This document shows positions 7,976-60,336 of a stretch of 64,000 bases of DNA, piece by piece. This stretch comes from Octopus vulgaris (lineage: Eukaryota): assembly GCA_951406725.2 (NCBI GenBank), contig OX597814.1, positions 131,130,001-131,194,000 on the forward strand, in the 5' to 3' direction. The notes below the pieces were generated by a model, which saw only the letters and a program-made list of their open reading frames with translations, had not been told where the DNA came from and made no database searches. How positions within the stretch are numbered: position 1 is the stretch's first letter; every line of letters begins with the position of its first letter. A program made the translations under genes and the position numbers.

Positions 7976-9210
7976 GGCGTAGGAGTGGCTGTGTGGTAAG
8001 TAACTTGTTTGCCAACCACATGGTTCCGGGTTCAGTCCCACTGTGAGGCACCTTGGGCAAATGTCTTCCAAACTTCCAAATTTGGAAGTGGTCTAACAAT
8101 TGGGACCTGTGTCTGAACGTGTCAAAGTGCTGTCATCTGCCTGTCGGCTCTACTCCTGCAACTCAACTTGATTTCGAGCCGGGTCGTCTGCTGCTGGAGA
8201 GGACCGATCAGGTAAAGGACCTAGGTATCTTGGTGGATTCCTCCTTTTCGCCTTCGGCCCAGTGCGTCCATGCTGCCAACAAAGCACGCGGAATTCTGTT
8301 CTTGATTCGACGGTCATTCGGAATGCTCACAGCAGCCATATTCCTACCACTCTATGTCACGCTGGTGAGACCCATATTGGAGTATGGGATTCAAGCCTCT
8401 TCTCCTTATCTCCTCAAAGACATACAGCATCTCGAAAGAGTCCAGAAGCTGGCTACCCGCATGGTTCATGGTCTCAAAAATTTGTCCTACGAAGAAAGGC
8501 TGAGGACGCTCGACCTTTATTCTCTTGAAAAACGCCACCGCCGTGGTGATCTCATTCTCGCCCACAACATCACAAGCGGAAAGTGTAACCTCTCGAAAGA
8601 GCTGTTCTTCACTCCTGCTCCAGAGCGTCGGCTGCGGGTTAATTCCGAAAAGCTCTACCTGCGACGATTTCATCTCAATCGAAGGAGAGGAGCTTTCTCC
8701 GTCCGGGTTGCGGATCCGTGGAACAAGCTGCCAGACGAGATGGTGAAGATGCCGACGACCGCTTTGTTCAAAGCCTCCCTTGACCTCAAGTGGCCTGAAC
8801 TCTTTACATGAACACCACCCTGTACTTAACTCCATGTCCCCCTACATGGCCTTGCTATTTGCTTTTGAGCCAAATTAACTAACTAACTAACTAACTAACT
8901 TGAGCCTCGGGTCGATCAAAGCCTTGTGGGTGGATTTGGTAGACGGAAACTGAAAGAAGCCCGTCGTATATATGTATATATATTTATATATGTGTGTGTA
9001 TATGTTTGTGTGTCTGTGTTTGCCCCCCCCCACATCGCTTGACCACCGATGTTGGTGTGTTTACGTCGCCGTAACTTAGCGGTTCGGCAAAACAGACTGA
9101 TAGAATAGGTACTAGGCTTACAAAGACTAAGTCCTAGGGTCGATTTGCTCGACTAAAGGCGGTGCTCCAGCATAGCCACAGTCAAATGAAACAAGAAAAA
9201 GAATAGAAGA
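7976..9210 (+). mobile_element. CORE-type SINE split by a LINE insertion (7976-8068 plus 8901-9210)
   Basis: 5' part ends ccttgggcaaatgtcttc and resumes agcctcgggtcgatcaaagccttgtg, contiguous in intact copies. Confidence 0.85.
8069..8900 (+). mobile_element. 5'-truncated CR1/L2-group LINE: ORF2 C-terminus, 3' UTR and (AACT)n tail
   Basis: Open frame to 8811 with KDLGILVD..LYVTLVRPILEY..LERVQKLATRMV..LSYEERL..L.LYSLEKR..RGDLI..FSVRV..WNKLP, typical of CR1-group ORF2 C-termini; tail aactaactaact at ~8873-8900. Confidence 0.9.
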
Positions 9211-9298: not shown

Positions 9299-9370
9299 GC
9301 CACCATCTCCTCGTCACTTATCGGTTAGGATGTCAAAAGCAATTTCGTGCTATTATTGATAATATTGCTT
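9299..9370 (-). ncRNA. Candidate non-circularly permuted hammerhead (C3 mutated to G)
   Basis: Minus: aagcaa UA ttatc aataata gcac GAAA ttgctt ...14 nt... gataa GUGACGA ggagatg gtggc; helix III aagcaaU/Attgctt, helix I ttatc/gataa. Confidence 0.6.
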
Positions 9371-9590
9371 CCACTCTGGAGACACCAGCAAGAAAACTTG
9401 CAGGGAATGCAACCAAAACATAACAAAACAAAACGAGACGGACAAACAACGGATGAACAAGGAATACGGAAATGGACATACGAAAATGGATAAAAGTAAT
9501 TCGAGACGAGACCGTTAGTGGACGGACGAAGGGCAAAATAAACGTAATAAATAAACAGAATATAGGGCCAGACGAAGGTGACAAAAACAG

Positions 9591-11156: not shown

Positions 11157-11221
<65 letters not shown>

Positions 11222-11294
11222 AATGAATGTTTTTATATATAATGAACGTGAAATACAGGAAGGGACGAACACGGAACACAGACAAATCATTCGA

Positions 11295-11363
11295 AGCCTT
11301 CAATCTTCAGTCAGACACCGAATCATCATAGCAAATTTCGGCTGTTCAATTCTGATATTTGCT
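11295..11363 (-). ncRNA. Candidate non-circularly permuted hammerhead, unit 1 of the 705-bp array
   Basis: Minus: agcaaa UA tcaga attgaac agcc GAAA tttgct atgatgattcggtg tctga CUGAAGA ttgaa ggct; helix III 7 bp, helix I 5 bp, helix II agcc/ggct after a 5-nt insert. Confidence 0.7.
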
Positions 11364-11998
11364 CCAACTCGGCCAGCCCCAAGAAAAAAAACTAAGCTGT
11401 AAGCATTAGATTTCTTGGTAGAAGACAGGAATGTGAACGCACAAGACGGATGTGAATACAAGAGACGAAAACGAAATTGAAAACAGTAATGAATAGACAA
11501 AATATATAGAACGGTGGTTGTCATACGACTTTAGACCAATGAGACAAAAACACAACAACATAGCTGGCGTAGAAATAATTACCGTTTCGGTAGCGGGGAC
11601 ACATGTTGGTCGAGATACGAAGGCCAACAGAATGGTTTAAGAAGCAGCAGGTCGCAGGAGAGAGAGAAAGAGAGACAGAGAGAGAGGGAATCAAAGAGGG
11701 TGGAAGGCAGGGGACAGAATCAGTGACCAAGGGAGAAGGAGAAAGAAGGGATTAAGGAGGATGGGAGGAAGAGGGGAGGAGGATGGGAGGAAGAATCGGA
11801 GGGCGCCAAAAAGTTTGGTGAAGAAGCAATGGCGGGTAGTAAAAGACAGTGTGTATAGAAGTCGTGCAGGTTTTAAAATTGGACAAACAAACGGGGGGGT
11901 GCACGTAACGCCGCAATAATATAAGAATGAATGTTTTTATATATAATGAACGTGAAATACAGGAAGGGACGAACACGGAACACAGACAAATCATTCGA

Positions 11999-12067
11999 AG
12001 CCTTCAATCTTCAGTCAGACACCGAATCATCATAGCAAATTTCGGCTGTTCAATTCTGATATTTGCT
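11999..12067 (-). ncRNA. Candidate non-circularly permuted hammerhead, unit 2
   Basis: Same sequence as 11295-11363. Confidence 0.7.
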
Positions 12068-12705
12068 CCAACTCGGCCAGCCCCAAGAAAAAAAAACTAA
12101 GCTGTAAGCATTAGATTTCTTGGTAGAAGACAGGAATGTGAACGCACAAGACGGATGTGAATACAAGAGACGAAAACGAAATTGAAAACAGTAATGAATA
12201 GACAAAATATATAGAACGGTGGTTGTCATACGACTTTAGACCAATGAGACAAAAACACAACAACAACATAGCTGGCGTAGAAATAATTACCGTTTCGGTA
12301 GCGGGGACACATGTTGGTCGAGATACGAAGGCCAACAGAATGGTTTAAGAAGCAGCAGGTCGCAGGAGAGAGAGAAAGAGAGACAGAGAGAGAGGGAATC
12401 AAAGAGGGTGGAAGGCAGGGGACAGAATCAGTGACCAAGGGAGAAGGAGAAAGAAGGGATTAAGGAGGATGGGAGGAAGAGGGGAGGAGGATGGGAGGAA
12501 GAATCGGAGGGCGCCAAAAAGTTTGGTGAAGAAGCAATGGCGGGTAGTAAAAGACAGTGTGTATAGAAGTCGTGCAGGTTTTAAAATTGGACAAACAAAC
12601 GGGGGGTGCACGTAACGCCGCAATAATATAAGAATGAATGTTTTTATATATAATGAACGTGAAATACAGGAAGGGACGAACACGGAACACAGACAAATCA
12701 TTCGA

Positions 12706-12774
12706 AGCCTTCAATCTTCAGTCAGACACCGAATCATCATAGCAAATTTCGGCTGTTCAATTCTGATATTTGCT
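12706..12774 (-). ncRNA. Candidate non-circularly permuted hammerhead, unit 3
   Basis: Same sequence as 11295-11363. Confidence 0.7.
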
Positions 12775-13715
12775 CCAACTCGGCCAGCCCCAAGAAAAAA
12801 ACTAAGCTGTAAGCATTAGATTTCTTGGTAGAAGACAGGAATGTGAACGCACAAGACGGATGTGAATACAAGAGACGAAAACGAAATTGAAAACAGTAAT
12901 GAATAGACAAAATATATAGAACGGTGGTTGTCATACGACTTTAGACCAATGAGACAAAAACACAACAACAACATAGCTGGCGTAGAAATAATTACCGTTT
13001 CGGTAGCGGGGACACATGTTGGTCGAGATACGAAGGCCAACAGAATGGTTTAAGAAGCAGCAGGTCGCAGGAGAGAGAGAAAGAGAGACAGAGAGAGAGG
13101 GAATCAAAGAGGGTGGAAGGCAGGGGACAGAATCAGTGACCAAGGGAGAAGGAGAAAGAAGGGATTAAGGAGGATGGGAGGAAGAGGGGAGGAGGATGGG
13201 AGGAAGAATCGGAGGGCGCCAAAAAGTTTGGTGAAGAAGCAATGGCGGGTAGTAAAAGACAGTGTGTATAGAAGTCGTGCAGGTTTTAAAATTGGACAAA
13301 CAAACGGGGGGGTGCACGTAACGCCGCAATAATATAAGAATGAATGTTTTTATATATAATGAACGTGAAATACAGGAAGGGACGAATATTCATTTACTGC
13401 CGACTGAAACTGCGCTTCCGTGGCGAATTTGAAAAATTAACATGTATAACGATGAGCCAAGGTGTTATTCATCTCTTAGTTATATGTTAGTGTTATGGCA
13501 CGGTCACTGATGGGAAATTCACCTAGCAAATTATATTATTTGCTCAAAAAAATTTGAAGCCTAGGTCTGACCGTAATAAAATAACAAGGTAATTTATTTT
13601 TATTCCTTTTGAAGATTGCTCTTAAATGTGGTTTTGGTCATTTTGACTAATTCTTCAAGCGTGTAAAACTACTTGTTGAAGGCAGTTTCTCTTGTGTTTA
13701 AATGTACACTATTTT

Positions 13716-17681: not shown

Positions 17682-17745
17682 CAGTCCTCCTCAGTTCTCG
17701 ACTTTTATTACTTCCTATTTCGTGCTTTCAACGACAAGATAGGAA
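17682..17745 (-). ncRNA. Candidate non-circularly permuted hammerhead (left arm of an inverted pair)
   Basis: Minus: ttccta UC ttgtcg ttgaaa gcac GAAA taggaa ... cgagaa CUGAGGA ggactg; helix III 7 bp, helix I with one mismatch, helix II weak. Confidence 0.55.
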
Positions 17746-17965
17746 AATTTCATAAGACAGCAGCATCCAGAAATTTTTAGAATATAAAGTTTGTGGCGAG
17801 TTAGGGCCTCGAACGAAAAGCAACAACAGATTGGACGTACAGAGTAAACATACGACGAAAACAAACATTGAGGGCCGTCAGATTAAGACGAATCGTAATG
17901 GGTAACGCCTGGGAGAAATTTTGAAAGAATATAGAATAAATATATTCCTTCAAAATTATGAAGTT

Positions 17966-25447: not shown

Positions 25448-25516
25448 GGAGTAAACACATAAATGTGAAACAAGGTGGAAAAAAGAGTACTCAAATACCA
25501 GTGGTAGAGTAATATG

Positions 25517-25679
25517 CTTTATTTTAAGCAGCAGAAAAATCAACAAAATCTGTTACTCTGAGTTTCTCGTTGCCGTTCATCAGACAGTTTTTGCTAGATT
25601 CTAGCAAAAACTGTCTGATGAACGGCAACGAGAAACTCAGAGTACAGATTTTGTTGATTTTTCTGCTGCTTAAAATAAA

Positions 25680-25680
<1 letters not shown>
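25517..25680. repeat. Near-perfect palindrome (82/81-bp arms, 1-nt spacer at 25599) with a type I hammerhead motif on each strand
   Basis: Minus 25544-25593: caaaaactgt CUGAUGA a cg-GCAA-cg a GAAA ctc-a-gag UA acagattttg; plus copy 25605-25653 lacks one A. Confidence 0.9.
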
Positions 25681-25716
<36 letters not shown>

Positions 25717-33454: not shown

Positions 33455-35187
33455 ATGTATGTATGTATGTATGTATGTATGTATGTATGTATGTGTGTGT
33501 GTATTCATACACATATATATTCATGCACGTATTCATAGAAATCCAATCGTTTACTGGTACAGAAAGAATTCAAAAGAAATTCAAAGATCCATATGTGTTT
33601 CCTGCAATGGGCATAAGCACACAGTCACATGTGCGCATATAACATATTCACACACACATACATAAAAGAATAATCACTTGCACACTCGCATATGCATACA
33701 CACACATACGTGTACTAAAGGAATATGGACATCCATTACACGAATGTCTCTATATCTACATATATACACCTACACATATGCATAATCTTGCAGAAATCCT
33801 TTGAACTGTCTTGAATCAAACAGAAAAGCCTTGTCACTTCTTTAGTGCCCGATTTGGATTCTGCTTACATCTGAAATAATCTCAAAGAAAAACATACACA
33901 TATAAAATTAAACTTACATAAATATAAACATACGTACATACACATATATATGGACGGACGTTCATAATAACATAAACACAGATATGCATATGCATAGATA
34001 AATACACACACACATATGTACAAACTTAGCTACATATATACATACGTACAAGCATGCATAAACACACAAATTCATAGATACGTATACATATACCTATACA
34101 CATACATACGCATACATACACTTATAGATACACACACACACACGTACCCAAGTACACACATGCATGCAAACATAATATGCATGGATAGTTTTACCTAAAA
34201 GAGGAAGATGCCAAAATTGACAACGATTGCTGTGTCTCTAGGGCTCGTAGCTACTTCCATTAGGTCACATCTCAAATGTTATGCTCTGAGAGCAAAAGAT
34301 TACCACAAAATACCTGCTAAACAAACGAATGTTTTGAAGCATTCATAATGCCGGAAATGCTACTTTTGTTCAAAGGACATTATTTTACATGTAGTCAGCA
34401 GTTGTTTTAAAATATCATTAAAGGTATTACATTTCTCCAAACATACAATTTCATGTTCTTGTGAAATGACATCAAAGGCTTCTCTGGATATATATTAAAA
34501 CTGCTTGAAAAATAATTCTGTTATTGAATTTCAACGCAAAATTATTGTGTTTTATTTTTTACTTCTTTCACTCATTAGACTGCGGACACGTTGGATCAAC
34601 GCTTTGAAGAACTTTTAGTCGAATGAATCAACCCCAGTGCTTATATTTTCTTAAAGTCTGATACTTATTCTATCGGTATCATTTATTCGAACCGCTAATT
34701 AACGGGGACGTGAACAAACCAATACCGGTTGTTAAACGGTAGTGGAAGACAAATACAGAAACAAAGACACACACATACATATACACTCATACATGCAAAC
34801 ATATATAAATACCTCAATACATACATACATGCACACTCACACACACTTACACACAAACACACACACATGAGCGCCTCTCCTCTTCACCGTTCCCTCTCTC
34901 TCATTCTTCCTCCTTGACTCTCTCGTCGCTGACACGTGACGAAAGGGAATCTATCTTTCTGTCCATTTCCTTCCTAAAAACAAGACGTGCTTATACCTGT
35001 CTCCTCTCATAGCTCGTCCTCCTAGTATTCATAATCATTTTTATATCGTCTTGGCTTAACAGCCCTCACCGTTTGTTTTTACTGTCTTGTTCTCACTGTC
35101 CTGTTCTTGTTACCACTTTCCCCCTCCGCAAAAAAACCCCAAATTTTATTTAAGTTGCTTTGCGGGAAGGACTGTTTCAACGAAGTC

Positions 35188-35247
35188 GCGTATTGTCTTT
35201 ACCTTCGTAACGCAGAGAAGATGAAACAGAGACAACTGATGAAGGGG
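35188..35247 (+). ncRNA. Candidate non-circularly permuted hammerhead (GAAA mutated to GUAA)
   Basis: gcg UA ttgtct tta ccttc GUAA cgc ...16 nt... agacaa CUGAUGA a gggg; related to the 54224-54282 family with compensatory stem changes; truncated relative at ~39956-39997. Confidence 0.6.
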
Positions 35248-35699: not shown

Positions 35700-36101
35700 T
35701 TAAATGGTTGAGCCAAATAAAAATTGAATGTTTTCATCCCACTTTTCCTTATATTGGATAGAGGAAGCGCCGATATAGAAATAGACATTGGCGCTTCCTC
35801 TTCCCAGTTATTTAAGAGAATTTCCAATCATTATTCTTCATTTAGGGATAGCAGTAAACGTAATAGCACAGGGCTAAGTAAATTGGTTTGGTATCTTAAA
35901 GACAACAATAAGGATTTTAAGTTAGATTGGCTTATCCTGTCATCTCTTTCCCTTATGACAAGGGCAAAGGATTTTGTAACATTTGCAACTCTGAACTCTT
36001 CCATATTCTCTTCTCTAATAAATCACCTTATTAACACACATATAGAGCGATCTTACAAATGTATACACTGGCAGAAACATACTTTTAGCTCATATAAGTG
36101 A
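35700..36101 (+). mobile_element. Penelope-like element GIY-YIG endonuclease remnant
   Basis: DIGASS..FKRISNHYSSFRDSSKRNSTGLSKLVWYLKDNNKDFKLDW.., frameshifted CNIC, ..KCIHWQKH; PLE endonuclease pattern. Confidence 0.8.
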
Positions 36102-36828: not shown

Positions 36829-36858
36829 TATGTCTTGCTGTTGAGATAGGTTCCTTTT

Positions 36859-36944
36859 CTTTCCTGATGAGAAGATTACATTATTTTACACCGTTTATCC
36901 CTTTGAAATAAAACCAATGTTGTCTTCGAAACATAAGTCGAAAG
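36859..36944 (+). ncRNA. Type I hammerhead ribozyme motif at the 3' end of a PLE
   Basis: ctttc CUGAUGA gaaga ...47-nt loop... tcttc GAAA cataag UC gaaag; perfect core, 5-bp helices I and II, GUC site at 36937-36939. Confidence 0.8.
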
Positions 36945-37130
36945 TAAAATAGTTTGAATAACACATCCGTACAACTCCATTTATTTACTTATACTATACA
37001 AATTACTGCACATTAACCCGGAGTTTCTACTTTTGAATAGGCCGCTACATCCTTGTTAATCGCGTGAATTTTGTTACGCTGGTATTGAATTTTCCGTGTT
37101 AACTGTAAACAAAGGATAATTCATTCATCT

Positions 37131-38549: not shown

Positions 38550-39590
38550 GTGGAGTAACAATGTGTTTTTTTTCTCCTTTATACGCATTTAGTAAATTTA
38601 CATATTCCAGTACCAAGTTGGAAAACGTTTTCAGGCAATTTAATTTCAGTATTCCATCACTGTGAGAAACAAGATGATGCTATAGATCAAGAGCTTTGTC
38701 ATCCATAAAACTATTGCGTGAAAACTTGAAAAATACCTTCACAAGTATTCTAGGTTCGAGTGAAAAGTGGGATGAAGATACGTTTTGTCAAACAGATAAT
38801 CAATTGACAAAGTTGAATGATTTCACATTCATGCTTTTCATCAATTGCTTTCATAACATACTTTCTCAGGCTGGAAAAGTCTTTGACATCCTACAGTGTA
38901 GGCTACTCGACAGAAAGCATTGTCAGAATAAACTAAATTACTTGATTCATTGTGTTGAAGGCTATCGTATGGACGAACATTTTGAAAACATTCTGCGCAA
39001 TACAGCTGCTGTCATTGAACAGGCAGGATCTTCCTCTTAGAAAAAAGAGTCAGAGGTGCACAAATTAGTTACAAAACTACCGATTTTGAAATAATTGATT
39101 CTAATGTCCTTACCAGAGAGATTTTCTGGCATTCAGGAGTATACATCTTTTTAATTACTAGACATAAATAAGTTTGAAGAGTTTGCTAACTCATTTCCCA
39201 TGCAACATATGGACTTTCTAGAAAACAAGTATCTCTGTATTGTTTTTAGTGTAAGAGCTTAGTGAACGAGCTAAAATATACGAGCAAGTCAAGCAACTCC
39301 ATTTTAGAATTACTGGATAAATTAAAGTTGACTTCCGCTATGCCGGAATCCATTAAACCAATTAAGCTAGTGCTGACCATCCCCTTAACATCAGTCGCTA
39401 ATGAGAGAAGTTTCTCAACGTTGGATAGAATCCGTTCATATTTGAGAAGCACAATGGCTGAAGAACGGCTGTCTTCATTAGCTTGTATTTCCATTTTGAA
39501 CGACCTGGACAACAAGAAGGAGTTACATGACAGAATATTTTACACGAGTTCACTTATAAATGGATTGATTTTTATATTAAAACTGTATTG
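38550..39590 (+). mobile_element. hAT-superfamily transposase remnant, C-terminal half with dimerisation domain
   Basis: LVLTIPLTSVANERSFSTLDRIRSYLRSTMAEERLSSLACISI is the hAT dimerisation motif; upstream KLNDFTFMLFINCFHNIL..FDILQ; stops and frameshifts. Confidence 0.9.
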
Positions 39591-39638
39591 GCAAATCTGT
39601 GATGAGCCCGAGTGATGCTGATGACCTGGAATTGCCAA

Positions 39639-46260: not shown

Positions 46261-46838
46261 GCGCTTGTGCCGGTTCGCGCACGCATACGCGCCGCATGCA
46301 CCTCGCCCTTGGACCCGACGAGACCTCCCGCCCGTTCCTGGGATCGTCGTTTGTCGTTGGGTTTTCCCACGCCCGTCTCCGCGGTACCACTCTTCCATCT
46401 TCCCCTCAGCTGGAGTCCTTTTCCTTAACCCCCCCTTTTTCGTTACACACACGCGCACACATATACACACATTGCTTAAATATATACATTACTCTTACAC
46501 ACATTCAATCTACTCGCCATTAATACTACCACGACACTGGACACACACACACACTACTACTCAACACACGCTGGCACGCTACATACGCCCCCACCCCTTC
46601 GAGCCTTTCTGGTGACGTCGATGTTCGCCTGGGGCTAAATGCAACAGTAACACCCCCACCACCCTGCCCTGTCCCTAGCCATATTCAGATGGCTTTAGTC
46701 CCTTATGTTATCGAGCAGTTACTGTCTATATCCCTTTTAGAGAATTATTATTGCTTTCGAACAGATTTTCGAAATCAGCAAATGTATTTTGCTTGAAAAT
46801 CTATATAAGAAAATCCTGCAAAGTGAGAATTCGTCGAG

Positions 46839-46912
46839 GAAGCGGAGGCCTACCACACGCCGATGATAGGCAATACACCTTGAAACCATGGTCCGTGTGT
46901 GGTTTCCGCTTC
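46839..46912 (+). ncRNA. Type I hammerhead motif (U4C) with extended helix I
   Basis: gaagcgga..acca/cacacg CCGAUGA t agg-caataca-cct t GAAA ccatgg UC cgtgtg tggt t tccgcttc; predicted cut after 46893. Confidence 0.8.
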
Positions 46913-47198
46913 ATCGGGGAATTACCTCCCTTTGCAGGTTTAGGGCACCGTGACGGTGTCGAGCCTTTCTGGTGACGTCGATGTTCGCCTGGGGCTAAAT
47001 GCAACAGTAACACCCCCACCACCCTGCCCTGTCCCTAGCCATATTCAGATGGCTTTAGTCCCTTATGTTATCGAGCAGTTACTGTCTATATCCCTTTTAG
47101 AGAATTATTATTGCTTTCGAACAGATTTTCGAAATCAGCAAATGTATTTTGCTTGAAAATCTATATAAGAAAATCCTGCAAAGTGAGAATTCGTCGAG

Positions 47199-47272
47199 GA
47201 AGCGGAGGCCTACCACACGCCGATGATAGGCAATACACCTTGAAACCATGGTCCGTGTGTGGTTTCCGCTTC
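47199..47272 (+). ncRNA. Type I hammerhead motif, second unit
   Basis: Identical to 46839-46912; predicted cut after 47253. Confidence 0.8.
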
Positions 47273-48135
47273 ATCGGGGAATTACCTCCCTTTGCAGGTT
47301 TAGGGCACCGTGACGGTGTCGAGCCTTTCTGGTGACGTCGATGTTCGCCTGGGGCTAAATGCAACAGTAACACCCCCACCACCCTGCCCTGTCCCTAGCC
47401 ATATTCAGATGGCTTTAGTCCCTTATGTTATATATATATATATATATATATATATGCATATATATATATGTAGATACCTACATATATATGTATATATACG
47501 TGCATATATAGGTACAGGACGTAAAAGAAACGTGAACAAAATGAGTTTGTTTTTTGTTCTCGCTCCTCATTTTGTTCACGTTTTTTGACGTCATGTATAT
47601 ATATGCATATATGCATGTATATATACATATATATATGTACGTATGTACATATATATTAGTGTATATGCAAATATTTATATATTATTCATGTTATTATATA
47701 TATATATATACATCTGTATGTATATATGTATGAATGCATAACTACATGCATAACTACATGCATATATGTGTATATATATATATGCATGTATGTATGTATG
47801 TATGTATCTATGCATCTATGAGGTATGTATATATATATATGTTTATGTATATGTATTTGTATATATATATGCACATATATATATATATACATATATATAT
47901 ATACATATACATATATATTTATATGCATATATATATATTTGTTTATATATATACATGAATATGTTCAAATTTTTTCAGTTAATGTTTGTTGTTTTTTGTA
48001 TATAATTAAAAGCTTCTATATTAATGCACGCGCGCACACACACACATACACACACACACACACGGACCCACACGCATATGAACACATGTTCGAAGAACAG
48101 GCCTATGTGCGACAGTAACTATGACTCTCTGACTC

Positions 48136-48801: not shown

Positions 48802-49407
48802 ATTAATTAATAAGGGTGAGAGAATTAGATACTAATTTAATAGTATATCTATTCAACACCAAGTGGCCTAGTGCTACGAGAAACCTGGATTATTATAATA
48901 TTTTATAACATATTATAATATTTTTACAAAATAAATATAAGAGAGTGGTCACTATATGGCTCACTCTAGCACCAGTTAATCCAAAAGGTTTCAACCACGA
49001 AAATACATGTTTCCCATGAAAGTCAGTACGATTGTTAGCTCACACGGACAGGGCAAATAAAAAATAACAAAAATACAGATTATTTTGGGACAATTGTTTC
49101 GCTATTAATGAATTAAATGTAATTTTACTTACAAAAAAAAATCCATTTGTAGCTCGTCAGCCAGAACTATCTGGATGAAATCCACTCAATCACACGCCAG
49201 ATTTTACCATAACGATAAATACGCGTGTGGTTCAATTGATTACATCCGACGTTATAATTCAAATGCCCCAACTAACAGCGCGCCAAACTTTCACGGAAAA
49301 CAAATACAGCATTTAGAAATAAATGCAGCATAATTATAATTAATTAATAAGGGTGAGAGAATTAGATACTAATTTAATAGTATATCTATTCAACACCAAG
49401 TGGCCTA
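48798..49407 (-). mobile_element. 537-bp non-coding unit plus ~73-bp terminal direct repeat, embedded in (TA)n; hammerhead-bearing element
   Basis: gggtgagagaattagatac..caagtggccta at 48814 and 49351; (TA)n on both flanks. Confidence 0.8.
49083..49166 (-). ncRNA. Type I hammerhead ribozyme motif with intact core
   Basis: Minus: ttctgg CUGACGA gcta ...45-nt loop... tagc GAAA caattg UC ccaaaa; palindromic helix III, GUC site. Confidence 0.78.
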
Positions 49408-49410
49408 TAT

Positions 49411-49464
<54 letters not shown>

Positions 49465-49483
49465 ATATATAGAGAGAGAAAGC

Positions 49484-49515
<32 letters not shown>

Positions 49516-49765
49516 TAGACATATACACATAGAATTTATGTGTTGGTATGCAAATATATATATATATATTCTTTTATTCTTTTATTTGTTTCGACCCCAG
49601 GACTTATTCTTTGTAAGCCTAGTACTTATTCTCATTTGCCGAACTGCTAAGTTTCGAGGACGTAAACACAACAGCATCGGTTGTCAAGTGATGCTGGTGG
49701 GAGGGGGGACAAACACAGACACATACCCACATAAATAAATAAATATATATATATATATATATATA

Positions 49766-50059
49766 TCACGTGACCACGTGACCGACCAGTCCATCAGATG
49801 TAGTTACACATCGCTGGTCACAATGCGTTCGCATTGTTTCAGCCTTCGAATGACGCCACTCCGCTGGCTAAGCGAGCAGGCCAACAGAAGAAAGAGTGGG
49901 AGAAAGAGTAGTGAAAGAGTACAGCAGGGATCACCACCCCCTGCCGGAGCCTCGTGGAGCTTTTAGCTCAATAAACACTCACAACGCCCGGTCTGGGAAT
50001 CGAAACCGCGATCCTACGACCGCGAGTTCGCTGCCCTAACCACTGGGCCATTGCGCCTC

Positions 50060-50061
<2 letters not shown>
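49766..50061 (-). mobile_element. tRNA-derived SINE (13997 family); duplicate at 55368-55663
   Basis: Minus: ggaggcgcaatggcccagtggttagggcagcgaactcgcggtcgtagg..ggtcacgtggtcacgtgat. Confidence 0.85.
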
Positions 50062-50107
<46 letters not shown>

Positions 50108-50858
50108 CATACATACATACATACATACATACATACATACATACATACATACATACATACGACGGGCTTCTTTCAGTTTCCGCCTATCAAATACACTCAC
50201 AAGTTGTTGGTTGGCCTGTGGCTATAGTAGAAGACACTTGCCCAAGGTGTCACACAGTGGAACTGAACCCGGGACCATGTGGTTGGTATGCCACCTACTT
50301 ACCACACAGGCGCTCCTACGCCTATATATATATCAGTTGAATAAAGTTAAAATGTAGTCTGATTTTCACGTTTTATTTTATGGTATTTTAAAAGACATAT
50401 TTTTCTACGATGTTGAAGTGTTTTAAACATTAAAAACATATTTTGTAATGTCCGTAAAGTTGAATTAGCGCTTTCAAACGTTCGTTGTAATCATCAGATT
50501 TCAAAATGTATTTAACTGACAGTTGACTTCTTGACAACTATAGTAAAATGACTGATTTCATCTTTTTATACGTCTTGGAGGACTCCTACAAGCTGAATTT
50601 TTGGAATACGGTTTTGACCAGTCCGCATGCTCCTTAAACGTCACGGTTTGCCTGGCGTACCGATATTACTGGTATAGATCCCACCTTTATTTTACCAATT
50701 AGCTTGTAGTTTACATGTAATGGTTTTATGAATGAGCAAAAACATGGTTTCGATCGTTTTTATTTCAATTGATGGGAGTCTTCTGTAATTTGTTTATATT
50801 CATGTGTTAAAGATTTTCTTTTAATTCACATCATTAACTGGTTGTTATATTATTGTTG

Positions 50859-51787
50859 TCATTTCCGTTCAGAACAGGTTTGAACATTTTAATGAGCCGT
50901 TTTTCTTTTATCTTTCTTCCAACCTCACCTGTGTCATGTAGTTTGTGGAAAAGAAAAATTAGCAACATTTTCTGACCACATGTTTCTATATGTCCGCTCA
51001 ATGGAATTTGGCGAGCATTAGTGTTCTGGATTTGTTGTCTGTGGATCCGTGAGCGTTCCGATAATGCATTCCCTGTCTCTCTCTATATAGTTCTTCGCAA
51101 TTCGGGCATTTTATGCAGTAGATCAAATTTCTGCTTTTGCAGGTTATATCTGCATTTGTGAAAATCTGTTCCTTTTTTGTTCTAATGGATCTACTTGTAT
51201 GCATGCATTGACACATTCCCCATCTGTTATCATTACACTTGGATACTGTGAATGTTTTATACTGTTTGTTCATGTTAAATTTTGCCTTTGTTAATAGTTT
51301 CTTTGGGTTATGTGTTTACTTTTACAAGATAAGTACTTGATTACTCACCATGCTTTTTTAATTTTTCACTTTGTTTCATGATTGGCAAATTTGCTTTGAT
51401 GATGTTAAAAATGTTTTGATAATGCGGATTGTGTGTTATGAGAAATAGTATTGTGTTCCGTTGATGGATTTGTTTTTTTCGTGTTGCCCTAAGTTGTTCT
51501 ATAGGTATCTCTTTTGCTCGTTGTATGCTATTTTCTATAAGTAGGAGAGGGTAATTTTGCTTCAGCAGTAATCCTTTGAGTTCTATACGTCGCATGTTCC
51601 TAGTATTTGGATCATCTACTTACTATAGTACAAATTTTCCTGACTAGACAGTACGGGATGTTGCGTTTTGTGGGTGTTGGGTGGCATGATTTGAAATTTA
51701 GGTACTGATGTGCATCTGTGCTTTTGTAATAAATACCAGTTGTGAGTGTAGTGTTGTTTTAATTACCATTATGTCAAGAAATGGTGA
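50859..51787 (-). mobile_element. Penelope-like element: RT thumb, Cys-rich linker and GIY-YIG endonuclease remnant
   Basis: PFLDIMV..IYYKSTDAHQYLNFKSCHPTPTKRNIPY..LLKQNYP..ITCKSRNLIYCIKCPNCEELY..KEKRLIKMFKPVLN, with frameshifts. Confidence 0.9.
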
Positions 51788-51789
51788 AT

Positions 51790-52018
51790 GTGTGTTGCTT
51801 ATCTCTCTGTTTTCTATAAGTATTGGGATACTTGGAACAAAACCTATATCATAAAAATTGAAGAGAACTACGGCAAGACTTTTAGAAGACCTGTAGAGGA
51901 CATATGGAAAAGATACCTCGATGATTGTTTCCTAATTTGGACCAAATCCCTAGAAAACCGGGAAGAAATCAGTACCCTCCTCAACAATCTACACCCTAGT
52001 CTCAAATTCACAAGAGAA
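51790..52018 (+). mobile_element. Inverted PLE RT fragment containing the catalytic YLDD
   Basis: WKRYLDDCFLIWTKSLENREEISTLLNNLHPSLKFTRE. Confidence 0.88.
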
Positions 52019-52053
52019 AGGATGGATGGAGGGATGGACGGACAGACAGACAA

Positions 52054-52199
<146 letters not shown>

Positions 52200-53424
52200 T
52201 GATTGATTGATAGAAGATTACTGGTGTCGTGCCAAAACGTGTTACCAATATTGCAGACAAGGTTATCTTTGTGTGCAAAGGTAAGTAGCCACTTAAAAAC
52301 CATTTGTAAACGAGGACGAAGCGATTCCAAATAAGTCCACTGCTACAACAATTTCTTTGAAATTAGATTGGTAAAAAATTGTTTAACCTGTACAAGAAGC
52401 ATCAAGGAAAGCTATTCGTCCCGAGTCATATGTCACCAGCTGTTTGATCTTTGTACAAGCAATTAATTTTGGTGGACATTCTAATCCAGATGTTGAATGT
52501 CATATCTAAGTTGCCTCAAGGATCCGTCGACTGAGAACTGTAGCTGCTGTTTTTACTGGAGCAGGCAGTTCGCAATGTTTAAGATCCTCGGTAGCCATCG
52601 ACCAAAGTTCAGTGCTTGGTTGAACATTACAGAGGTTAACTCCAAAGATTATTTAATTTTTCCCCCCGCTCCAGTGACTATGGCAAAGTTACTGTGAATC
52701 TGATGGGGAACTGGTATAGAAAATAAAAGCGAAGTATTTCGTCCTTTATTTATTTATTTATTTTCTCTTTGTCTTTTTCTTGGATGTGAGACATTGTGAT
52801 GTCTTCCAATGAACTGTTTCGATCAGCCTCATCTTTCAAGAGGCAGCTTCTCTTGCAAACTTCATGGCATGTTACGCAGACACATACAGCTTGTGTTTTT
52901 AAATTCTCGAATGACACTAGACAAACAAATGTTGAGCAAGTAGTTGTCTGAGATAAAATCACTCAAAGAAACGGGATGACACGACTGGGCGCAGCCGTTT
53001 CGGCACTAGAAATTCGGCACAGCTGACTGGACATTGAACCTGTTATGGCGAAAGTACTTTTTCTTTCTTATTTACTGGACTGCATACTGTTCCTTGCAGT
53101 AGAATCAAGCGAATTAATGTAATTACGTGACTCACGTTCTTCAGATTCCTACACACACACACACACATGTATATATATATATATTTAGTTGTAAATTGTA
53201 AAACATAACAGCCACCATTACTACATGAACCTAAAGATTGCGTATTTTAAATGCATGAAAGTACTAGGTCAATCAGAAAGGACATTTAATATTCTATCAT
53301 TTCATTATATTATATTATATTATATTATGCTATGTTATCATAAGATTGCAAATAAAGCGTGAAAATCAGATAAAGTTGGAATTTCTTTGAGTAATATATT
53401 CTTCTAAACACAGCCATACACACC

Positions 53425-53805
53425 TGTTCCACGTCTCTGTCCTTCTGTTGTAACAAAATGTCTTTTCCGTTTTCGTTCTGTTGATTTTTTCGTCTTCCTG
53501 TGATGTCCTGTACGTATATATATTTATATATGCATGTATATATACATGTAGATGTCGGTACGTACATATACGTTTGTATGTATGCATATATTTTATTTAT
53601 TACACTATTGTCTGACAGCGCTTCGCGTCGGGTTCGTTTGAATTTTCGATTTTTCGAATTCTCACTTCGTTCCGTCTCTTCCTCCTTGTCCGTTTTTACA
53701 GTTTACTACAATGATGCGAAATTCTCTCCCTTTGCTTTACCTTCCCTTCTCTCTCTCTCTTGCTCTCTCTACCTCACCCTTCTCTCTAGCCTGTGTCTTC
53801 CTCTA

Positions 53806-53869
<64 letters not shown>

Positions 53870-54545
53870 ACTCCTCCTCACTTTCGTCACTGCTAAACCT
53901 TTCCGCCTGTTGCATTCAGGCCCTAAGGTCATGTTTCCTCGCGCTCGCCAGTTACCTATCTCGTCCCAGCCAGAACAAAGGCCTTCGTTCGTCTTTTTCG
54001 TTTATTCTCTTGTTTATTTTTGATTTCTCGTATTGCAATTTAATTCTCGTTATGTATTTTCTTGTACATGTATCTTTATTTTGTATTATTTATTTTTTTC
54101 TTGTATGTATTTTTTGTGCAGTTCTTTGTTACGTCCCTTTTTGTGTTACATTCTTTCTCGCTCGTTTACCCCTCTACGAGTTTATTTTATTTTAATTCTC
54201 TCGTAGGAAGGCCTAGCTTGGCTATACGTGTTCTGTCTCTGCCTTCGAAACACGTGTCTGCTAGCGACAGCTGATGAAGGGGAGTTTTCCTTGTGCAGCA
54301 TGTCCTGTACTTCGTTTTTCTGCTGCACATAATTGTTTTTCCTGTTTTCGTTTTCGTTTCGTCGTCTTGTTCCACGTCTCTGTCCTTCTGCTGTAACAAA
54401 ATGTCTTTTCCGTTTTCGTTCTGTTGATTTTTTCGTCTTCCTGTGATGTCCTGTACGTATATATATTTATATATGCATGTATATATACATGTAGATGTCG
54501 GTACGTACATATATGTTTGTATGTATGCATATATTTTATTTATGA

Positions 54546-54549
<4 letters not shown>
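53425..54549 (+). mobile_element. 943-bp unit plus ~180-bp terminal direct repeat ending in (TA)n; carries a permuted hammerhead
   Basis: tgttccacgtctctgtccttctg..tacacta at 53425-~53607 and 54368-54549. Confidence 0.8.
54224..54282 (+). ncRNA. Candidate non-circularly permuted hammerhead, intact core
   Basis: atacgtg UU ctgtc tct gccttc GAAA cacgtgt ctgctagc gacag CUGAUGA a gggg; helix III 8 bp, helix I 5 bp, helix II cttc/gggg. Confidence 0.75.
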
Positions 54550-54584
<35 letters not shown>

Positions 54585-54719
54585 TATATACATACATATA
54601 TATAATATATATATATAAGAATTTTTTGCGTAATAATACAAAAAACCAAGGCTGTTTCTAGGATATTTATTAATTATATCCCTTCATCGGAGACGGTGTG
54701 AGAGGATGATTAAGTCTAT

Positions 54720-54819: not shown

Positions 54820-60336
<5,517 letters not shown>

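Follow-up and report, generated by a model that had tools for sequence, protein, structure and literature searches.

A predicted hammerhead ribozyme opened at the A9/G10.1 bond in Naiad Penelope-like elements and in non-autonomous repeats of Octopus vulgaris

A 64,000-nucleotide stretch of the Octopus vulgaris genome (assembly GCA_951406725.2, contig OX597814.1, positions 131,130,001 to 131,194,000; hereafter the window) contains repeated copies of a predicted self-cleaving, four-strand hammerhead, which we interpret, with a probability of roughly 0.7, as the pLTR-type ribozyme of Naiad Penelope-like elements (PLEs) and of local non-autonomous tandem elements. The cleavage-site strand (S), the GAAA strand (G) and the CUGANGA strand (C) follow one another in the order S-G-C, and the 5' strand of helix II lies upstream of the cleavage block; the core is therefore opened between A9 and G10.1. 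The RNA probably has the four helices of the design of Eckert et al. (I, II, III and one that bridges I and II), with the chain opened at the A9/G10.1 bond, and is as such a predicted hammerhead. The copy at 54224 is laid out as follows.

54207..54277, plus strand: predicted four-helix hammerhead in the order (II5'-P4a)-(III3'-UH-I3')-(II3'-GAAA-III5')-(P4b-I5'-CUGAUGA)
54207..54217, plus strand: detached helix II 5' strand (54207-54212, G10.1 = 54207), then P4a (54213-54217); 6/6 and 5/5 Watson-Crick pairs, covarying across families
54224..54237, plus strand: block S, with the helix III 3' strand, U16.1 (54231), H17 (54232), the predicted cut 54232/54233, at which junctions cluster, and the helix I 3' strand
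54241..54257, plus strand: block G, with the helix II 3' strand (54241-54246), G12-A14 (54247-54249) and the helix III 5' strand (54250-54257)
54260..54277, plus strand: P4b (54260-54264), the helix I 5' strand (54266-54270) and core C3-A9 (54271-54277), to which no helix II strand is attached
54279..54292, plus strand: small tail hairpin (-3.2 kcal/mol) over the G-run that had earlier been taken as part of helix II

In this copy G12 is 54247, C3 is 54271, and the linker from helix I to helix II is 3 nt long (54238-54240). The upstream strand lies about 20-27 nt before U16.1, begins at the G10.1-C11.1 pair and pairs perfectly with the bases preceding GAAA, as in GAAGGC/GCCUUC at 54207, GGCUG/CAGCC at 11378 and GACACC/GGUGUC in the Naiad at locus L202. 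It directly adjoins P4a, the P4 partner strand abuts the helix I 5' strand, and three of the four helices cross. Inspection by eye gave no conserved helix between the strand following A9 and the one preceding G10.1. The bases G8-A9 and those that follow repeat the upstream helix II strand at 54276-54281 and 35241-35246, so an inactive alternative pairing is possible; in the GAAGG-type families this register roughly equals the active one in stability (-6.0 to -6.2 against -4.6 to -8.0). The repeat could possibly be a switch or a relic of permutation. Membership of hammerhead types I, II or III was rejected, as the cyclic order C-G-S is absent, the order here is S-G-C and there is no Rfam hammerhead match; a conventional type I or III fold through the tail hairpin was also rejected, there being no matching GAAA and helix III.

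The order S-G-C, with helices I and III in catalytic register, was recovered at all five sites at which the initial annotation had described it (as c-b-a), so its non-circularly permuted hammerhead is confirmed, and the cut it placed after 54232 agrees with the register of U16.1 and H17. Its sites at 54224, 35188 and 17966 lie on the plus strand, while those at 11295 and 9299 belong to the minus strand (11310 and 9317), which it had left unstated. Its helix II could not be retained: gccttc with the downstream gggg gives only 2 Watson-Crick pairs of 4 (-3.3 kcal/mol), compared to 6 of 6 (-8.0 kcal/mol) with the upstream partner. The CUGANGA strand, its block a, thus carries no helix II, and four strands with four helices take its place. 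The c-b-a descriptor and the 54215-54295 transcript that it proposed would both miss the helix II 5' strand at 54207-54212.

The window is 37% GC and microsatellite-rich, and lies in a 2.8-Gb assembly with about 30 large contigs. Scanning it with a pattern of UH, GAAA and CUGANGA in S-G-C order plus helices I and III gave 8 three-helix matches, compared to a mean of 0.1 in 40 dinucleotide shuffles, and 6 matches with all four helices, compared to none in 40 of 40 shuffles. Forty arbitrary 10-kb genome stretches (400 kb) held 1 intact motif; the window is therefore richer than usual, and the genome as a whole has on the order of thousands. Exact genome-wide matches numbered 413 for a 22-mer of the 11310 family and 67 for the 54224 family, with none for reversed controls. 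A chance pattern or an assembly artefact is conceivable in single cases, since lone three-helix chance matches exist (L136 and, probably, 20979) and one copy (59827) sits in a duplicate around an N gap; the near-zero shuffle controls, the 413 and 67 exact matches against none for the reversed controls and the same layout in unrelated published sequences speak against so improbable an origin, which is refuted for the family, doubt persisting only for the 59827 copy. The permuted hammerhead structure is almost certainly real. For the permuted motifs Rfam returned no hammerhead match at E<=10, bearing out the expectation that standard searches would miss them; a canonical type I motif at 36864 gave a weak Hammerhead_1 match (E 3.1). 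When the whole window was compared with Rfam, the best 150 of 442 matches were microsatellite-driven and uninformative.

The motif is hosted by non-autonomous Penelope-like repeats with units of 700-940 nt, partial tandems, (TA)n targets and hundreds to thousands of copies, in line with the earlier proposal of a mobile family. Its copies in the window and their elements are listed below.

53425..54548, plus strand: non-autonomous Penelope-like element made of a 184-nt 3' piece and, after it, one 943-nt unit, with (TA)n at its end
59032..60154, plus strand: second copy of that element, ribozyme 59810-59880 (the 59827 copy), in a 5.5-kb duplicate across the N gap
11218..13386, minus strand: young tandem array, unit about 704-707 nt, with three intact ribozymes (11378-11304, 12082-12008, 12789-12715) and a predicted cut at 11356/11355
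35166..35242, plus strand: the four helices in the same layout, 5 bp in II and 8 bp in P4; GUAA instead of GAAA
17966..18024, plus strand: copy of a third family (locus L081), upstream II5' and P4a strands lost
17688..17767, minus strand: inverted copy of the 17966 family (the 17694 copy), upstream strands kept, one mismatch in helix I
9311..9385, minus strand: decayed copy of an older family (the 9299 copy), C3 changed to G and P4 broken

The layout therefore recurs, as had been claimed for five versions, but three of the five copies cited (9299, 17966 and 35188) are damaged or deviant, and further tandem-unit copies lie beyond the cited sites at 12014 and 12721. Within the families the picture is more regular: all 20 fetched copies aligned for the 9299 family give a majority with an intact core and a 5-bp upstream helix II, and 30 of 30 aligned copies of the 17966 family give a majority whose upstream helix II needs one bulge, a downstream alternative also being possible. 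Of 10 copies fetched for the 35188 family, a sample biased towards the query, 7 have GUAA, and this core variant seems to have spread in that family. The second copy of the 54224 element is probably not independent of the first; the segments 49227-54719 and 54820-60336 form a 5.5-kb duplicate, 98.3% identical, flanking a 100-N gap, and are likely an assembly or haplotype duplicate.

First-look candidates per family numbered 1108, 1906, 789, 262 and 3198. Partial tandems, 5' truncation, inverted 5' copies and a fixed 3' end in (TA)n, the hallmarks of non-autonomous Penelope-like elements, were all observed. The unit of the 54224 copy is preceded by its own last 184 nt, and its relatives show like partial tandems with periods of about 890-940 as well as an inverted copy (L008). 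In the 11310 family, 40 scored matches were all 100% identical, and 9 of 28 arrays on contig C1, counted from exact 22-mer matches, contained 2-4 ribozymes. The 3' ends share a single internal position with (TA)n after it, and 26 of 30 and 26 of 28 loci pass a strict TA test. All 4 contig sets examined contain a head-to-tail joint, for which tandem DNA would account as well as a circular RNA intermediate. No coding frame was found in the window's units.

Elsewhere in the window, a remnant PLE with a C-terminal endonuclease and a canonical type I hammerhead, whose stem II is long, lies at 35721-36101 and 36858-36945 (both plus strand). A frame at 8047-8811 (plus strand) resembles the C-terminus of a LINE reverse transcriptase (RT) and had no Pfam match; one at 38678-39615 (plus strand) resembles a hAT-type transposase remnant. 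A perfect 360-bp tandem repeat occupies 46599-47431 and a 175-bp palindrome 25512-25685.

All 15 core positions and the G10.1-C11.1 pair were kept in 12 of 12 representative copies, although for the latter count the partner was chosen as the best upstream match and a cross-pairing control was used alongside. The CUGANGA/GAAA/UH core with helices I-III in register was found with two exceptions, GUAA (A13U) in the 35188 family and C3G in the 9299 copy. Of the 60 positions scored in each, all are paired in helix I and 58 in helix III, and the variable positions show 2-6 different pair types; because both helices belonged to the scan filter, only this variety is informative. In 14 clusters drawn from 131 matches, at least 5 Watson-Crick pairs formed with the cluster's own upstream helix II strand in 10, compared to 7 of 164 cross pairings, two of the clusters (one among the 10) probably being chance matches and the remainder amounting to about five related lineages rather than 14 independent ones. 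The downstream partner reached 5 pairs in none of the 14 clusters, and its mean of 1.43 equalled that of the cross control (1.43). Among 97 matches (loci L001-L123), most of them from two families, at least 4 Watson-Crick pairs were formed upstream in 83, downstream in 1 and in P4 in 82. Covariation is present across families in both the upstream helix II and P4, and the upstream helix II is very likely correct.

The same counts bear on whether the RNA is an ordinary type-SGC ribozyme, with helix II made by the strand just after CUGANGA and the upstream pairing incidental or an off state. Such a fold would preserve the A9-10.1 link that has been tested, and downstream pairing can be drawn in some families (4 bp in the GAAGG-type families; 5 bp, 4 of them Watson-Crick, in the 17966 family). 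However, downstream pairing is no better than the cross-family control, reaches 4 Watson-Crick pairs in 1 of 97 matches compared to 83 of 97 upstream (two families dominating), and is absent in the 11310 superfamily and in Naiads; moreover, in the 17966 family 7 of 30 copies carry a variant helix II 3' strand able to pair upstream alone. A helix II 5' strand contiguous with CUGANGA, as type-SGC has it, was not found, the 17966 family being ambiguous, and we regard this fold as very unlikely compared to the core opened at A9/G10.1.

In the 5'-most units of 60 arrays of the 11310 family (61 ends, from the first 100 of the 413 matches), 4 of 61 ends had junctions within 2 nt on either side of the predicted cut (L206, L242, L221 and an inversion in L231; expected 0.34, P 4e-4), compared to three independent junctions in the next 56 nt, while 53 of 61 ends showed no junction within about 60 nt. 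For the 54224 family the count covered 56 of 67 copies, 36 known beforehand to be intact and 20 fetched; 4 of 56 had junctions at 54231-54235 (expected 0.63, P 4e-3), including one (L278) exactly at 54233, position 1.1; five further junctions lay in the next 43 nt. The sorting of junctions was done by eye, only upstream sequence supplied the background, and junctions lying further downstream escape the probes. The clustering gives indirect support to cleavage after UH in vivo, and TA microhomology, seen at two of the four junctions in the 11310 family, and RT stalling at the structure could contribute to it as alternative causes.

It is also possible, though unlikely, that the RNA descends from a hammerhead but cuts itself poorly, or only when assisted by protein, and is kept chiefly as a signal for binding or priming by the PLE protein. 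The spread GUAA family would fit such a role, as would the intact read-through of the site in most genomic copies (the 53 of 61 ends just described) and the PAc hammerhead, which needs protein and is dispensable in vitro (PMC11167929). The catalytic core and UH are nevertheless kept across five phyla while the helices change, junctions cluster at the cut, and circular or multimeric templates would themselves predict read-through, all of which favors the self-cleaving ribozyme.

Starting from the structure, its covariation, its place at Naiad 3' ends and the tandem units, whose internal 3' end is fixed at (TA)n, a cycle can be proposed for the self-cleaving reading. Tandem transcripts would be cut to unit length, with the 5' product held by three helices after cutting, which would favor ligation; both ends would stay paired through helices II, III and P4 and then be ligated to a circle. 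A Penelope-type RT/endonuclease would nick (TA)n, prime at an internal site of the RNA, 140-320 nt downstream from the cut, and copy more than one unit; on linear RNA, the RT would run off the cut end and jump. Internal priming by PLE RT is known (PMC11167929) and, on a circle or multimer, would yield arrays of more than one unit with a fixed 3' end; cleavage was dispensable for in vitro insertion by another PLE in the same work. The expected chemistry is the usual one, with the G12 base and the G8 2'-OH acid (PMC11300833). The A9-G12 and G10.1-C11.1 pairs would be retained and the backbone link alone lost. PLE hammerheads commonly carry a one-nucleotide insert between positions 9 and 10.1 (PMC4209133), and type-SGC and CSG RNAs cleave in vitro (PMC10085705).

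Craig et al. 2021 (PMC8557442) reported that canonical hammerheads are missing from Naiads and noted 8 unexplained 'half cores'; the proliferation of Naiads without hammerheads has served as an argument that these ribozymes could be mere parasites of PLEs. With a DKA-motif pattern, 17 genome matches and no control matches were obtained, and the four-helix ribozyme lay downstream on the same strand in 3 of 13 fetched DKA loci (L113, L114 and L118), each of which has DKA and RT remnants. At L114 the DKA motif, RT remnants, ribozyme and (TA)n are continuous, and this type of 3' end has 1746 candidates. By eye, the genomic Naiad remnants are nearly identical to the published Naiad_Ovul and Naiad_Obim, with Naiad_Ovul matching in both protein and 3' end. 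No intact Naiad ORF was found, the longest Naiad-like frame being 292 aa with 150 of 2367 candidates scored; the Naiad RTs among those scored are broken. At L201 (900-1250), a leader like that of the 35188 family is fused to a Naiad 3' end with its ribozyme, a chimera that suggests template switching between the two elements.

The published Naiads widen this link. In File S5 of PMC8557442, where CUGANGA was viewed within lines and parsed by eye (motifs split at line ends being missed), 17 of 54 consensus sequences contain permuted hammerheads, 11 in the split form from five phyla and 6 of type-CSG from nematodes; the remaining 37 records are negative, unparsed or have 3' ends outside the portion viewed. 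The split form is found in Bfor, 3_Chem, Amil, Anas, Aacu, 2_Movir, Plae, a Darwinula record (placed by file position), Obim, Ovul and Esco, names assigned in part from file order, and is weaker in Bfor (helix I of only 2-3 bp), Aacu (one mismatch in II) and Esco (weak II). The contiguous type-CSG is found in the nematode Naiads Parc, Nbra-1, -2 and -3 and two others placed by file position. In the portion of the file viewed, the motif is absent from six Naiad 3' ends (four bivalve, two chordate) and from the last 400-500 nt of Naiad-1, -2 and -4_Chem, Naiad-1_Movir and Adux. Naiad-1_Chem, Naiad-2_Chem and two oyster records, which lack CUGANGA, have in the place of the hammerhead another conserved and apparently structured 3' motif, a candidate ribozyme of another kind, and arthropod Naiads in the file have CCCC-CUGANGA cores with partner strands not assignable by eye, possibly a further wiring.

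Two other PLE families of this genome were rejected as carriers of the motif. In 0 of 13 3' regions read was the motif part of a Neptune-like PLE or of a PLE with RT and C-terminal endonuclease; permuted copies beside these two families are nested in (TA)n, and the latter family carries a canonical type I hammerhead. The Neptune-like family (L031-L037) has many intact frames of 753-782 aa and ends in (TA)n, with CUGAAGA but no clean hammerhead fold in its 3' UTR. The window's units have no ORF with an N-terminal GIY-YIG, CxC, DKA motif and RT and are therefore not filed as Naiads; no sequence similarity between these non-autonomous units and Naiads was found, the ribozyme architecture alone being shared.

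From these by-eye readings, SGC, CSG and the split form appear to be the same circle of strands opened at three different points, and tandem pLTR duplication could convert one form into another. It seems reasonably likely, if a little less so than the octopus reading itself, that an active hammerhead severed at A9/G10.1 is a seventh wiring, standard in many Naiads of ctenophores, cnidarians, acanthocephalans, arthropods and molluscs, that nematode Naiads use type-CSG, and that all are openings of one circular four-helix design through pLTR tandem duplication. If this is true, non-circularly permuted hammerheads would be common in animal genomes rather than a metatranscriptome rarity, the claim of Naiad proliferation without hammerheads would be overturned, the link between CUGANGA and helix II would not be obligatory and there would be an evolutionary route between permutations. 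The four-strand descriptor is applicable to any genome.

Several known systems resemble the octopus RNA in part. In the literature covered, which left subscription journals outside its scope, we found no permuted hammerheads in Naiads or animal genomes and no core opened at A9/G10.1; the text of PMC10162972 available to us has nothing on a split A9/G10.1 topology, and that of PMC13725137 cites only Eckert and two others for hammerhead variants. The pseudoknot (PK) hammerhead (PMC11300833, PDB 8YDC) also has a long-range pairing as helix II and an extra helix beside helix I, but its A9 is joined to G10.1, its G10.1-C11.1 pair is local and its layout, unlike that of the octopus motif, is not S-G-C. 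Metazoan non-LTR retrozymes and non-autonomous PLE derivatives (bioRxiv 10.64898/2026.07.22.740005; PMC7229834) are, like the octopus units, non-coding tandems with one hammerhead per unit, and the octopus unit length falls inside the reported retrozyme range of 51-972 bp; however, retrozymes are defined and searched by type I hammerheads (bioRxiv 10.64898/2026.07.22.740005), and the octopus motifs would be missed. Naiads (PMC8557442) share (TA)n targets, partial tandems and inverted 5' copies with the octopus elements, but they encode protein, whereas the window's elements do not and share only the ribozyme architecture. The nearest relatives are the type-SGC RNAs of Eckert et al. 2023 (PMC10085705), the paper on non-circular permutations to which the initial annotation had pointed, in which the S-G-C order was validated in vitro; its permuted RNAs came from metatranscriptomes and metagenomes, and, in the parts of it available to us, the sole case from the genome of a known organism is a bacterial GCS candidate. 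Type-SGC and the octopus motif have in common the S-G-C order, the core, the short I-to-II linker and a helix bridging stems I and II, but in type-SGC CUGANGA and the helix II 5' strand form one indivisible block, the search patterns demanding CUGAUGA[U]G plus stem II, while in the octopus motif the two are separated. The S-G-C order alone is therefore already known, and the novelty that had been placed in the host lineage and the retroelement association is wider, consisting of a topology outside Eckert's six block orders together with the connection to Naiads.
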